DNA of 64,000 nt, from assembly GCF_013315695.1 (NCBI RefSeq), contig NZ_CP054353.1; one strand, given 5' to 3'. Within the stretch, counting starts at the first letter, position 1. Every line of letters begins with the position of its first letter. Shown here in pieces: positions 6,001 to 18,000 of this stretch. This DNA is from Escherichia coli (lineage in GTDB: Bacteria; Pseudomonadota; Gammaproteobacteria; Enterobacterales; Enterobacteriaceae). Made by a program: the position numbers.

Positions 6001-9000
6001 AGAATAATGATATATATTTCATGAGCGAGTCAACGTCTCAACTGCAGCGACAATTTTTCTTGCTAATGTTCCCACCAATGAAACCTCGACATTATAATTA
6101 AGCACATGATCCTGCAAGACTAATAATTTTTCAGGAGTTAACCCCTTTTTATCAGACCTTAATGCTTGTAACGCATTTTGCTGCCAATTTTCAGTTTGTA
6201 CCGCATAGTTAGCAAAAGCGGAGATCATTTTATCATCCGGGTTATCAAGATTGAGAACCCGGTCATTTAAATCAATAACTTTCGCTTGCTGTATTTCATG
6301 AGCAGCTGATTGCTCAGCTCTATCAATAGGTGGCATATTGCTTACTGACATAATAAAATCCTTATCCAGTTTAGCGGAAGTTTTGTATGATTGCCGAATC
6401 AAGATCTTTATACGCTTTTACAACGTTAGATTGCGCATTTCGATATAATGTATACTCAGCTAATGCACTCTGATATTCGGCAAGGAATTTCGGGTCGGAA
6501 GGATTGGTTGCTAAATCCTCCAACGCTTTTTCAACTTGCTGGTTCAGATCATCAACGCCCTGATCAAATTGTTTGCTGATATCCATAATATAACCATTCC
6601 AATCTGCCATAAGTCCTCCTCAATTATTCCTGAAATGTCCACTTGCTACCTTGAGACGGTGATGCTGCCAACTTACTGATTTAGTGTATGATGGTGTTTT
6701 TGAGGTGCTCCAGTGGCTTCTGTTTCTATCAGCTGTCCCTCCTGTTCAGCTACTGACGGGGTGGTGCGTAACGGCAAAAGCACCGCCGGACATCAGCGCT
6801 ATCTCTGCTCTCACTGCCGTAAAACATGGCAACTGCAGTTCACTTACACCGCTTCTCAACCCGGTACGCACCAGAAAATCATTGATATGGCCATGAATGG
6901 CGTTGGATGCCGGGCAACAGCCCGCATTATGGGCGTTGGCCTCAACACGATTTTACGTCACTTAAAAAACTCAGGCCGCAGTCGGTAACCTCGCGCATAC
7001 AGCCGGGCAGTGACGTCATCGTCTGCGCGGAAATGGACGAACAGTGGGGCTATGTCGGGGCTAAATCGCGCCAGCGCTGGCTGTTTTACGCGTATGACAG
7101 GCTCCGGAAGACGGTTGTTGCGCACGTATTCGGTGAACGCACTATGGCGACGCTGGGGCGTCTTATGAGCCTGCTGTCACCCTTTGACGTGGTGATATGG
7201 ATGACGGATGGCTGGCCGCTGTATGAATCCCGCCTGAAGGGAAAGCTGCACGTAATCAGCAAGCGATATACGCAGCGAATTGAGCGGCATAACCTGAATC
7301 TGAGGCAGCACCTGGCACGGCTGGGACGGAAGTCGCTGTCGTTCTCAAAATCGGTGGAGCTGCATGACAAAGTCATCGGGCATTATCTGAACATAAAACA
7401 CTATCAATAAGTTGGAGTCATTACCGACTTAATGTTATCCCGATAACTCTTCCACCGCTGCGTGAACGTCAGGAAGATATTGAATTACTGGTGCATTACT
7501 TTTTACATCTGCATACCCGTCGTCTGGGATCGGTTTATCCTGGCATTGCTCCGGATGTCGTCGAAATATTGCGTAAGCATCGTTGGCCCGGAAACCTGCG
7601 CGAGTTAAGCAATTTGATGGAATATCTGGTTAACGTGGTTCCTTCAGGTGAAGTTATCGACAGCACGCTATTGCCACCAAATCTGCTGAATAATGGCACA
7701 ACGGAGCAAAGTGATGTAACAGAGGTCAGTGAGGCGCACCTGTCACTCGATGATGCGGGCGGCACGGCGCTGGAGGAGATGGAAAAGCAAATGATCCGCG
7801 AGGCGCTTTCACGTCATAACAGCAAGAAGGAAGTTGCTGATGAACTGGGCATCGGCATTGCTACGCTCTATCGCAAGATTAAGAAATATGAGTTGTTAAA
7901 CACATAACCTCAGTGAATCCGGTCTGAATTCAGGCCGGATATCCTTTTACTTCGTTTTCTCGCAATCCAGAACTGTATTTACAATCATCTGATACCCCGT
8001 GCAGCGACAAAGATTTCCCGCCAGTCCGCGACGAATTTCCGTAATGGTTAATGGCTTCTCGCGTGGTTTCGCCAGCATTGCCGTGGTAGCCATAATCAGG
8101 CCAGGCGTACAAAACCCGCACTGCACTGCGCCGGATTTCGCATAAGCCTGCTGAACATGAGAAAGTTTTCCGCCTTTCGCTTCACCTTCAAGCGTGCGGA
8201 TCTCTTTTCCTTCAGCCCAGGCGGCAAGGTATAAGCAACTGTCTATTGCTGTGCCGTCGACCAGCACCGTACAGGCACCACATTCACCCACGCAGCACCC
8301 TTGTTTGACACTTAGCAGTCCTTGTTCGCGGAGTAATTCCGAGAGCGGCGTGCCTGGTGCGGCATGAAGCTGAAAAGGCATCCCGTTAATGGTGCATTCG
8401 ATGGTAATTGTTTCGCTGTGATTCATTGCAATTTTCCCCCCGCCGCGGCGACGGCTTCGCTAATCACTTTTTTGGTCATCGTCTGGATGAGATGCAGACG
8501 AAACTCTTTACTGGCCCGCCATGAAGAACGCGGGGCGACATCTTGCAGGACAGATTCGCTGATAGCTTCCAGCGTTTGCAGGTTTAATGGCGCATTTTGT
8601 GCAGTCTGTTCGGCATGTTGGCAGCGAATCGGCGTTGGCGCGGCAACACCAAATGCCAGGCGTAATTCGCTGAAATTGCCGTTATCCAGTCGGCAATGTG
8701 CGGCACAGCCAATCGTTGAAATATCCATTGCGTCGCGCATGGCATATTTAAAATGCGCGCTGCCCGCGTGTTCTTTCGGCTGGGGCGGAAAATGAAAGGC
8801 GACAAGGATTTCGTCATGCTCAAGAGACACTTTGCCCGGCCCAGTGTGAAAGCCATTAATCGGGACGAAACGAACACCGCGCGGGGAGTGAATCTCCAGT
8901 GTCGCGTCATAAATTAGCGTTGGCGTGGCAGAATCTGCGCTGGTAGCACCGTTGCAAATATTTCCACCGTAGGTAGCGACGTTACGGATCTGCGGTCCGG

Positions 9001-15000: not shown

Positions 15001-18000
15001 ACTGCCCGGCTGTATGCGCGAGGTTACCGACTGCGGCCTGAGTTTTTTAAGTGACGTAAAATCGTGTTGAGGCCAACGCCCATAATGCGGGCTGTTGCCC
15101 GGCATCCAACGCCATTCATGGCCATATCAATGATTTTCTGGTGCGTACCGGGTTGAGAAGCGGTGTAAGTGAACTGCAGTTGCCATGTTTTACGGCAGTG
15201 AGAGCAGAGATAGCGCTGATGTCCGGCGGTGCTTTTGCCGTTACGCACCACCCCGTCAGTAGCTGAACAGGAGGGACAGCTGATAGAAACAGAAGCCACT
15301 GGAGCACCTCAAAAACACCATCATACACTAAATCAGTAAGTTGGCAGCATCACCCGATGGGGATGTTCCTGGCACTGGGTGAAATAGTCGGTCGTAAACT
15401 CTCTTCACACGATATTATTCGCGGGCTGCGTGTCGATGGCGTAGGGACAATGATAGGCGGAACGTTTAACAGCTTCCCCCACACGTCATTTTCACAAAAC
15501 GTTGGCCTGGTTAGCGTGACGCGCGTTCATAGCCGCTGGGTGTGTATTTCTTCGGGAATTATATTAATCCTGTTTGGCATGGTGCCAAAAATGGCGGTGC
15601 TGGTCGCCTCCATTCCGCAATTTGTGCTGGGCGGTGCTGGGCTGGTGATGTTCGGCATGGTACTGGCGACAGGGATTCGAATTCTGTCGCGCTGTAACTA
15701 CACCACCAACCGTTACAACCTCTATATTGTGGCGATCAGTCTCGGCGTTGGCATGACTCCGACGCTCTCTCACGATTTCTTTTCTAAGTTACCGGCCGTA
15801 CTGCAACCGTTGCTGCATAGCGGCATTATGCTCGCAACCCTTAGCGCCGTTGTGCTGAACGTCTTCTTTAATGGCTATCAGCATCATGCTGATCTGGTGA
15901 AGGAATCCGTCTCTGATAAAGATTTAAAAGTCAGGACAGTACGTATGTGGCTTCTGATGCGCAAGCTGAAGAAAAATGAGCATGGAGAATAATATGAATC
16001 TTTTAATGCGCGCTATATTCAGTCTGCTGTTGCTTTTTACTCTCTCTATTCCTGTCATTTCTGACTGTGTTGCAATGGCCATTGAAAGTCGCTTCAAATA
16101 TATGATGCTGCTTTTTTAAATGGTTTTTACCTGTCGACATCCGCTCAAAACGGGCGGTTGTCGATAAACGCTCACTTGGTTAATCATTTCACTCTTCAAT
16201 TATCTATAATGATGAGTGATTAGAATTACATGTGAGAAATTATGCAAACGGAACACGTCATTTTATTGAATGCACAGGGAGTTCCCACGGGTACGCTGGA
16301 AAAGTATGCCGCACACACGGCAGACACTCTCTTACATCTCGCGTTCTCCAGTTGGCTGTTTAATGCCAAAGGGCAATTATTAGTTACCCGCCGCGCCCTT
16401 AGCAAAAAAGCGTGGCCTGGCGTGTGGACTAACTCGGTTTGTGGGCACCCACAACTGGGAGAAAGCAACGAAGACGCGGTGATCCGCCGTTGCCGTTATG
16501 AGCTTGGCGTGGAAATTACGCCTCCTGAATCTATCTATCCTGACTTCTACTATCGCGCCACCGATCCGAATGGCATTGTGGAAAATGAAGTGTGTCCGGT
16601 ATTTGCCGCACGCACCACCAGTGCGTTACAGATCAACGATGATGAAGTGATGGATTATCAATGGTGTGATTTAGCAGATGTATTACACGGTATTGATGCC
16701 ACGCCGTGGGCGTTCAGTCCGTGGATGGTGATGCAGGCAGCCAATAGTGAAGCAAGAAAATTGTTGTCTGCTTTCGCGCAGCACAATTAAAAAACCCCGA
16801 CATTTGCCGGGGTTGTGAGCATAACGTAATGCTTATTTCACCGGACGCATCGCCGGGAACAGAATAACGTCGCGGATGGTATGGCTGTTGGTGAACAGCA
16901 TTACCATACGGTCGATACCAATTCCCAGACCTGCTGTCGGCGGTAAGCCATGTTCCAGTGCGGTGACGTAATCTTCATCGTAGAACATCGCTTCGTCGTC
17001 ACCTGCATCTTTCGCGGCAACCTGATCCAGGAAGCGCTGCGCCTGATCTTCCGCGTCATTCAGTTCGCTAAAGCCGTTACCGATTTCACGACCACCGATA
17101 AAGAACTCAAAGCGGTCTGTGATTTCCGGGTTAACGTCGTTACGACGCGCCAGCGGAGAAACTTCTGCCGGATATTCAGTAATGAAGGTCGGCTGAATCA
17201 GATGTGCTTCTGCCACTTCTTCGAAGATCTCGGTAACGATACGGCCCAGACCCCAGCTCTTCTCAACGTGGATGCCGATAGATTCAGCAATCGCTTTCGC
17301 AGAGTCGAAGTTGTCCAGATCCGCCATGTCGGTTTCCGGGCGATATTTCTTGATCGCTTCACGCATGGTCAGTTTTTCGAACGGTTTACCGAAGTCCAGC
17401 GTTACGTCGCCGTAGGTCACTTCCGTCTTACCGAGAATATCCTGTGCCAGAGTACGGAACAGCGATTCGGTCAGCTCGATCAGATCTTTGTAATCTGCGT
17501 AAGCCATATAGAGTTCCATCATGGTGAACTCTGGGTTATGACGTACGGAAATACCTTCGTTACGGAAGTTACGGTTGATTTCGAATACACGCTCGAAGCC
17601 ACCGACCACCAGACGCTTGAGGTACAGTTCCGGCGCGATACGCAGGTACATGTCGAGATCCAGCGCGTTATGGTGAGTGATAAACGGACGCGCAGCGGCA
17701 CCGCCAGGGATCACCTGCATCATCGGCGTTTCAACTTCCATAAAGCCGCGGTTCACCATGAACTGGCGAATACCAGAGAGGATCTGCGAGCGCACTTTAA
17801 AGGTGTTGCGGGATTCATCGTTAGAGATGAGATCCAGATAACGCTGACGATAGCGCGCTTCCTGATCCTGCAAGCCGTGGAATTTATCCGGCAGCGGACG
17901 CAGTGCTTTGGTCAGCAGACGCAGCTCGGTACAGTGGATAGACAGTTCGCCGGTTTTGGTTTTGAACAGTTTACCTTTCGCGCCGAGGATGTCACCAAGG

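Follow-up and report, generated by a model that had tools for sequence, protein, structure and literature searches.

The insertion sequence IS1 is said, in the classical work of Reif and Saedler, Cornelis and Saedler, and Turlan and Chandler, to give rise to adjacent deletions and duplicative inversions. Replicative transposition can produce a deletion in cis without duplication or an inversion in trans between opposite copies, and members of the IS1 family also appear to transpose replicatively (PMC4471558). When E. coli evolves in the laboratory, inversions arise mainly by recombination between IS copies (LTEE, PMC4173774; mutation-accumulation lines, PMC5009759); there, the inverted segments typically span hundreds of kb to Mb and lie between pre-existing copies. 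The ETT2 cluster is itself known for attrition, with progressive loss of eiv, epa and epr genes beside glyU (Ren et al. 2004, as related in PMC7058095 and PMC11068852). Each isoform reviewed there is a simple right-end deletion, of 4.99, 5.68 or 8.74 kb.

The locus described here lies in a 64,000-nucleotide stretch of E. coli contig NZ_CP054353.1, referred to below as the window. It is very probably a lineage-specific scar made by IS1 in an IS1-rich E. coli clone and not a functional system. As in IS1 adjacent deletions and duplicative inversions, the IS is kept at the junction, the deletion starts from its exact terminus, a target duplication is lacking, two identical copies in opposite orientation bracket the inverted segment, and sister genomes show repeated nibbling at these IS ends. 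Unlike a one-step IS1 duplicative inversion, the locus lacks the diagnostic inverted 9-bp duplication, and a transpositional origin of the flip is not proven. An inverted IS pair accompanied by deletions of dispensable genes is also typical of the LTEE and mutation-accumulation inversions; unlike those, the block here measures 7 kb and neither IS1 copy is present in relatives of the same lineage. As elsewhere in ETT2 attrition, isoforms differ by lineage, and the same-lineage strain AF14 has its own ISKpn26-linked deletion. An inversion of glyU-xdhABC coupled to loss of ygeW-ygfT on the other side is not among the ETT2 isoforms in PMC7058095 and PMC11068852. Both the mechanism, a classical one, and the attrition of ETT2 are well known. 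This is a textbook, ordinary rearrangement that involves no new mechanism or system.

The two IS1 copies, A (6658-7425, plus strand) and B (14587-15354, minus strand), form the sole inverted pair reported by the repeat finder, with 768 nt each, 100% complementarity and 7,161 nt between them. Their positions and orientations, first proposed in a sequence-only reading of the window, agree with the repeat finder and with the terminal repeats read directly at both ends of both copies. These repeats are imperfect, about 23 bp long (GGTGATGCTGCCAACTTACTGAT / GGTAATGACTCCAACTTATTGAT) and match at 18 of 23 positions. Copy A is of the IS1A type. Its insA frame (6713-6988) overlaps insB' (6907-7410), and the overlap contains the A6C motif TTAAAAAAC of the -1 programmed frameshift that joins the two into the DDE transposase. 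PGAP labels a sequence identical to copy A 'IS1-like element IS1A family transposase, programmed frameshift', and the Pfam matches to IS1 transposase are PF03811, PF12759 and PF03400. No differences separate the nine IS1 copies compared, which thus carry no recombination signal.

The 7,161-bp block between the copies comprises ygeV', xdhCBA, actS (ygeR), glyU and a truncated GH15 gene (ygeQ'). Window positions 7422-12942 correspond in reverse to positions 20494 to 14972 of the K-12 locus (L002), while both flanks align forward. The same reversed block between forward flanks appears against RS571 and MS 21-1, so that the strand reversal first suggested by comparison with the K-12 gene order is borne out by alignment. 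MS 21-1 and AF14 belong to the same lineage as the window (approximately 100% identity over 25 kb of flank), and both have the K-12 order with IS1 absent from the locus. The window order is therefore derived and not ancestral, and the possibility that relatives of the same lineage would show it as an ancestral, IS1-free state falls away. Missing with respect to MS 21-1 are 27,509 bp from ygeV to uacT, the interval between the two N-termini whose loss had been proposed. Most of ETT2 is likewise absent, as the sequence-only reading had it. The derived order, together with the clone series described below, supports its general proposal that IS1 both inverted the block and deleted DNA adjacent to it.

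All four junctions fall within genes, one more than the three counted initially. On the left, the last intact ETT2 gene before IS1 is eprI (6371-6610, minus strand), a 79-aa ORF for the needle protein whose counterpart in MSB1_4I and AF3 is annotated as 'type III secretion system needle complex protein'. IS1 does stand 47 bp from the eprI start codon, but the prgH homologue is not entirely absent, since 34 bp of the 3' end of eprH (PrgH/EprH) remain at 6624-6657 on the minus strand. This outer-left breakpoint is specific to the window and is placed by alignment to MSB1_4I, in which window positions 2997-6657 equal L001 1-3660 and EprH occupies L001 3627-4808. At the inner-left breakpoint, the sigma-54 activator frame beginning at 7426 is ygeV' (7426-7907, plus strand), the C-terminal 482 bp of the gene, equal to positions 33790-34271 of the MS 21-1 locus (L006). 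In MSB1_4I it is annotated as a partial gene without its N-terminus. The genes xdhC, xdhB and xdhA (7947-11609, minus strand) follow at full length, inverted relative to K-12, with ORFs of 159, 292 and 765 aa that equal in length those in MS 21-1. They are succeeded by actS (12025-12777, plus strand), also inverted, and by glyU, a tRNA-Gly(CCC) gene found by ARAGORN at 12856-12929 on the plus strand, as against the minus strand in K-12. The inner-right breakpoint interrupts the GH15 gene (13163-14608, plus strand). More than a few last codons falling inside IS1, as had been thought, are affected: the final 187 bp (62 codons) are lost and the frame then runs 22 nt into copy B. The break maps to position 19165 of the RS571 locus (L004) and to L006 40950 in MS 21-1. 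The fusion product has 481 aa, ends in ...GEKVMTPTY and is on record as the exact protein on 20 contigs. At the outer-right breakpoint uacT begins mid-gene at 15355, as noted from the start. The retained C-terminal part of this urate transporter gene (15355-15992, plus strand, about 638 bp) corresponds to K-12 L002 48181-48816 and is mapped to MS 21-1 at L006 6280.

To survey the junctions, five 300-bp sequences across them, and one more for an IS1 copy in eivJ, were searched for in 5,426 complete genomes; matches that merged nearby non-identical IS1 insertions into two-piece places were discounted. At least seven other assemblies, all from one IS1-rich clone, have the same inversion. The IS1-uacT' junction is common to all of them, and the eivC'-IS1 junction to those members that keep that part of ETT2. 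Among the 5,426 genomes the uacT' and eivC' junctions occur in MSB1_4I and AF3 only, the ygeV' and GH15' junctions in MSB1_4I only, and the eprH'-IS1 junction in none. The inversion and three of the four window junctions recur in MSB1_4I and in NCTC UGAA01; of the four, AF3 shares IS1-uacT' alone. Five further variants (L009, L010, L012, L013 and L014) are all inverted and carry the identical uacT' junction, and all eight clone assemblies present a single orientation of the block. Clone genomes contain at least 40 IS1 match pieces each, whereas the median genome has about 10 places. A literature search on strain MSB1_4I found nothing relevant.

Clone members are distinguished by further deletions, each beginning exactly at an IS1 end. 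Window positions 6658-29500 are 100% identical to MSB1_4I, and the window equals MSB1_4I minus 8,340 bp (L001 3661-12000) directly abutting copy A. This step has the hallmarks of an adjacent deletion, with the IS kept, a loss that abuts its terminus, no duplication and both the before and after states available. AF3 has the eivC'-IS1 and IS1-uacT' junctions of MSB1_4I and differs at the inner junctions, and comparison of the two types gives the same deletion pattern at both inner ends. In L014 a left inner junction of the AF3 type occurs together with a GH15 gene that is cut short; the GH15 break there lies at L006 41043, as against 40950, so that this is an independent deletion and not homoplasy. 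L011 was set aside as a clone member, as its 211-aa UacT fragment comes from a split uacT in normal context; the 211-aa UacT' protein occurs on 181 contigs in all, some of them outside the clone. The metagenome contig L019, in which a full ygeV-ygeW-ygeX is joined to the clone GH15'-IS1 junction, was considered as an intermediate and rejected as an assembly chimera of two strains. The block in this contig matches the window at 100% identity, while the 4 kb on the left side of the junction with IS1 are 2% divergent from the lineage, and the chimera is indicated by the confinement of 85 of the 91 mismatches to these 4 kb. No intermediate genome was found among the 5,426 complete genomes; the succession of the four founding events and the type of inversion involved are accordingly deduced, not observed.

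The 9-bp flanks are ccttgagac and gacttaatg for copy A, and aggcgagaa and cgatgggga for copy B, exactly as the sequence-only reading quoted them, and its statement that they contain no target duplication holds in every geometry. Comparisons that used the window flanks and the older flanks kept in MSB1_4I and AF3 gave no match as direct pairs, as inverted pairs or as the pairs left by recombination of two simple insertions. Three simple IS1 insertions in the clone, serving as a control, do carry 9-bp duplications: in eivJ (TGATTTTGT), in the AF3 GH15 gene (TCTGGATAA) and in argO of the window (CAAATCGCT). The missing duplication at copies A and B is as expected after deletion or inversion. The signature of a one-step duplicative inversion is lacking too, as gacttaatg does not match the reverse complement of cgatgggga, and neither ccttgagac nor ttcatcagt matches that of aggcgagaa or aaacatatc. 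Moreover, the paired breakpoints are not contiguous in MS 21-1, where 27.5 kb and 6.9 kb separate them. An origin in one duplicative inversion is thereby excluded, and a history of several steps, such an inversion among them, is compatible.

The ancestral order was eprK-J-I-H ... eivJ-I-C-A-E-G-F, a ghoT-like gene, GH15, glyU, actS, xdhABC, ygeV, ygeW...ygfT, uacT and idi. The clone ancestor already lacked 6.9 kb (eivC-eivF) and 27.5 kb (from the 5' end of ygeV to the 5' end of uacT) and had the block inverted, in the order eivC', IS1 (+), ygeV' xdhCBA actS glyU GH15 ghoT, IS1 (-), uacT'. Its outer-left junction lay in eivC, not in eprH, and its inner-right junction was at first beyond the ghoT-like gene. 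Later losses at the inner ends took 612 bp beside copy B in the MSB1_4I type and 4.4 kb beside copy A in the AF3 type. The window underwent an additional deletion of 8,340 bp at the outer end of copy A, so far unique. We infer that these losses are IS1 adjacent deletions, in which intramolecular replicative transposition in cis keeps the IS and removes the flank without duplication. For the 8.34-kb loss, a new IS1 in eprH in the same orientation, followed by recombination with copy A, would give the same product and is equally possible.

The inversion would be either a duplicative inversion in trans, which makes the second, inverted IS1, or RecA recombination between two inverted copies. Four distinct breakpoints without a shared 9-bp sequence imply at least four IS1 events, namely an insertion, an inversion and two adjacent deletions. 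A duplicative inversion would place the eivC'-IS1 junction beside inverted uacT 5' sequence with the reverse complement of CGATGGGGA, and the inverted 9-bp duplication would be absent today because later deletions would have removed it. RecA-dependent recombination between two independently inserted, opposite copies, with eivC-eivF and ygeV-uacT deleted beforehand, is a serious possibility, which we put somewhat below even. An inverted repeat of 768 bp without mismatches suffices as a substrate, the evolution experiments cited above provide precedent, and the flank-to-IS-end half-junctions are identical under both models, so that nothing observed contradicts it. Against it, none of the 5,426 genomes has these half-junctions in a non-inverted context, and the uniform orientation across the clone (8/8) indicates that flipping is at least not frequent. 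It also takes five events (two insertions, two deletions and one recombination) where four suffice by the other route (an insertion, a duplicative inversion and two deletions), and the four-event history is slightly favoured. Later events at the locus include no inversion of either kind, so that relative event rates favour neither duplicative inversion nor recombination.

It is very unlikely that the arrangement is an assembly artefact, either a block misoriented between identical repeats or an IS1 collapse that skips DNA. Short-read assemblies do show the block as a separate contig of about 7.2 kb that ends in IS1, where its orientation is unresolvable, and the eprH'-IS1 junction is found in the window only, without an independent assembly. 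However, the complete assemblies MSB1_4I, AF3, UGAA01, CAXKQU01 and OZ039894 agree on the orientation and the uacT' junction, and those keeping that part of ETT2 also concur on the eivC' junction. Recurrence in independent complete assemblies makes mis-orientation an improbable cause, and the artefact envisaged in the sequence-only reading is not what was found. Mis-orientation is also unable to yield the flank-to-IS-end junction sequences, and a collapse would need a real new IS1 end at eprH, which has no adjoining IS1 in the sister genomes. A composite transposon of the Tn1681 type with inverted IS1 ends, inserted as one piece, has the formal architecture of a cargo bracketed by two inverted IS1 copies but is refuted as the origin, its probability being negligible, by outer flanks (ccttgagac and cgatgggga) that show no 9-bp duplication and lie 42 kb apart in MS 21-1, contiguous in no ancestor, and by a cargo that is native to the locus and 99.9% identical to MS 21-1.

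The locus has lost the selenium-linked ygeW-ygfT cluster of purine/urate catabolism, and the clone is predicted to lack use of the YgeW-YgfT purine/urate route. An intact ygeW-ygfT block in one place is also missing from about 5% of complete E. coli genomes. The xdhABC, actS and glyU genes are intact and reversed relative to replication, and ygeV, uacT, GH15 and eprH are pseudogenes truncated by IS1. Within one locus history the founding rearrangement removed both the ETT2 core and the cluster for anaerobic purine/urate degradation, and the inverted orientation has stayed fixed across all eight assemblies. It is unlikely that this rearrangement was selected rather than neutral; if it was, reductive evolution could be followed here as a natural time series, and the rates of IS1 nibbling measured. 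The locus provides a worked example of one active IS family reshaping a region stepwise, with before and after states in sister genomes that are rarely preserved. Annotators of the clone should be aware of the inverted xdhABC and glyU and of the four truncated genes. The clone has been sampled in Australia and the UK, as an NCTC collection strain, as KTE strains and in gut metagenomes, and is human-associated and IS1-expanding.

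The only inverted pair that a repeat finder detects in 5000-17000 has arms at 6658-7425 (+, copy A) and 14587-15354 (-, copy B), each of 768 nt, 100% complementary and spaced 7,161 nt apart. These are the two identical, oppositely oriented IS1 copies of the sequence-only reading, whose four 9-bp flanks also hold letter for letter. The arms carry the IS1 termini GGTGATGCTGCCAACTTACTGAT and GGTAATGACTCCAACTTATTGAT and contain the Pfam families InsA and DDE_Tnp_IS1; RefSeq annotates the identical sequence as an IS1A transposase with a programmed frameshift. Within copy A, insA (6713-6988) overlaps insB' (6907-7410), and the overlap contains the TTAAAAAAC frameshift motif. 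Against K-12 MG1655 the window aligns forward at 9-5089 (ygeG-ygeO), in reverse at 7422-12942 and 13016-14299 (ygeV'-xdhCBA-actS-glyU-ygeQ, primes denoting truncated genes) and forward again at 15357-17076 (mid-uacT into idi and lysS). Comparison with RS571, in which the type III secretion island ETT2 is nearly complete, gives the same picture, and the proposed inversion of the block relative to both flanks is thereby confirmed. The block contains xdhA, xdhB, xdhC, actS and glyU at full length. Since alignment to RS571 places the end of the left flank 34 bp within the 3' end of eprH and the break in ygeQ (GH15) 187 bp ahead of the stop codon, all four junctions are intragenic, not three as first proposed. 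The GH15 frame does end inside IS1, but the extent of this 62-codon truncation had been understated; the distance of 47 bp from the left IS1 to the start of eprI (6371-6610) was correct.

Only five complete genomes match a 25-kb right-flank query at ≥99% identity: AF3, MSB1_4I, MS 21-1, AF14 and one more. MS 21-1 and AF14, same-lineage relatives outside the inverted clone, follow K-12 in gene order (idi-uacT-ygfT...ygeW-ygeV-xdhCBA-actS-glyU-GH15-ghoT-eivF...), and that whole stretch is free of IS1. Whether same-lineage genomes would show the window's order as ancestral without IS1 had been set beforehand as a test, and the K-12 order found in both favours the rearrangement. The breakpoints fall on MS 21-1 at 6280 (uacT), 33790 (ygeV), 40950 (GH15) and 48478 (eivC), and the block differs from MS 21-1 at 6 of 7,165 bases. 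Judged from these alignments, the window's arrangement is the derived one. The two relatives have IS events of their own nearby: MS 21-1 carries IS4 between lysS and idi (L006 3413-4759), and in AF14 ISKpn26 bounds a deletion that runs from eivA to yqeI, in addition to which there is an IS3-family insertion (L007 43500-49327).

Members of the clone retain different stages of the rearrangement. Window 6658-29500 matches MSB1_4I (Australia, rectal swab) at 100% identity, and that genome has the same ygeV', GH15' and uacT' junctions; left of copy A it retains eivC', eivI, an eivJ split by a third IS1, epaO-S, etrA and eprH. The window equals MSB1_4I minus L001 3661-12000, 8,340 bp directly adjoining copy A on its left. 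AF3 (UK, blood) shares the eivC'|IS1 and IS1|uacT' junctions with MSB1_4I. Its copy A adjoins the region upstream of actS, ygeV' and xdhCBA (4.4 kb) being missing, and its copy B adjoins the ghoT-eivF spacer, the GH15 3' end and ghoT being retained. Deletions being irreversible, the clone must descend from an ancestor with eivC'|IS1|ygeV'...GH15-ghoT|IS1|uacT'. Searching for exact copies of the UacT' fragment yielded further assemblies, of the MSB type (one NCTC strain and KE701943) and of the AF3 type (CAXKQU01, KE136818 and OZ039894); OZ039894 has independently lost 519 bp at copy B, and at its copy A all of ETT2 from ygeG onward is gone. The block is inverted and the uacT' junction identical in 8/8 assemblies. 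Among 5,426 complete genomes, the ygeV' and GH15' junctions occur in MSB1_4I only and the uacT' and eivC' junctions in MSB1_4I and AF3 only; the window's eprH' junction has no match. In the NCTC assembly (L017, UGAA01000001.1, 1-2258) the outer flank of the eivJ IS1 is a topoisomerase IV/gyrase-A-type gene, not eivJ', which implies a further large IS1-linked rearrangement there. An orgB-like ETT2 gene (window ~4042-4812), intact in the window and AF3, has a 1-nt indel in MSB1_4I (L001 1046-1752, annotated as frameshifted), which is either genuine or an assembly artefact.

Three simple insertions in the clone left perfect 9-bp duplications, among them TGATTTTGT at the IS1 in eivJ and TCTGGATAA at that in AF3 GH15. 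Likewise the arginine exporter gene argO is split in the window by a third identical IS1 (+, 53962-54729) with the duplication CAAATCGCT; this copy is present in MSB1_4I and absent from MS 21-1. Copies A and B have no such duplication, whether the flanks are paired directly or inverted (both as first read) or recombined. The classical IS1 literature describes adjacent deletions and duplicative inversions by intramolecular replicative transposition. The signature of this reaction in cis is a deletion that sets in at the exact IS terminus, with the IS kept and no duplication made; in trans, the intervening DNA is inverted and a second, oppositely oriented copy produced, and IS1-family elements appear to take this replicative route (PMC4471558). 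In the ancestor 27.5 kb and 6.9 kb separate the paired breakpoints, which excludes a one-step duplicative inversion. As the four breakpoints are all different and have no target sequence in common, at least four sites must have been chosen. Four events would suffice with a single insertion, a duplicative inversion and a pair of adjacent deletions; five would be needed if there were two insertions and two deletions and RecA recombination flipped the block, a route rated somewhat short of an even chance. The transpositional route, slightly better than even, is preferred on parsimony only, since no intermediate between the ancestral and rearranged states was found, the nine IS1 copies compared show no sequence difference and the locus no later inversion, transpositional or recombinational. 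The graded sister states support IS1-mediated inversion with adjacent deletions, as first proposed, and refine it to a several-step history. Either one adjacent deletion or an insertion in eprH with subsequent recombination between IS1 copies could account for the 8.34-kb loss that is specific to the window. The TACC preceding the ygeV break (L006 33786-33789) and the GGGATTATTAC preceding the AF3-type break (L006 38180-38190, window 11819-11829) resemble the IS1 right terminus, which may reflect chance or target preference.

Mis-orientation of the block between identical inverted repeats is a real risk, and in short-read assemblies the block is a separate contig of 7.2 kb. The orientation is nonetheless the same in several independent complete assemblies, and mis-orientation cannot generate the flank-to-IS-end junctions, of which only eprH'|IS1 is seen in this window's assembly alone. 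A metagenome contig (L019, ENA ERZ27238810 k111_17128, 1-11531) connects complete ygeV-ygeW to GH15'|IS1 as in the clone. It was rejected as a pre-deletion intermediate: its block matches the window at 100% identity, while past the IS1 junction 4 kb of sequence diverges by 2% from the lineage. It is a two-strain E. coli chimera joined at the IS1 branch point and a reason for care when IS junctions are inferred from metagenome contigs. An origin as a composite transposon is excluded, since its cargo would be native to the locus and the outer flanks, 42 kb apart in MS 21-1, share no duplication.

Rearrangements of this kind are textbook material; what is added here, modestly, is that sister genomes keep successive IS1-end deletions at one locus. 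Clone chromosomes hold at least 40 IS1 match pieces, where the median genome has about 10 places, and the window has three copies at sites where MS 21-1 has none, which points to an IS1-rich background. Attrition of ETT2 is well documented (PMC7058095, PMC11068852), and the ISKpn26-linked deletion of AF14 is independent within the same lineage. Loss of the purine/selenium-linked ygeW-ygfT cluster is uncommon but not exceptional, since 5,142 of the 5,426 complete genomes have it in one place at ≥80% coverage and 137 have no match. From gene content, the purine/urate-related pathway, UacT, YgeV and most ETT2 functions would be expected to be lost. Elsewhere in the window, srsR (LysR-type regulator, - strand) has near its 5' end a 23-bp tandem duplication (ACCAAATGGCGAAGCCGTCATAT twice, 52330-52375) that neither MSB1_4I nor MS 21-1 has and that should put the gene out of frame in this isolate alone.
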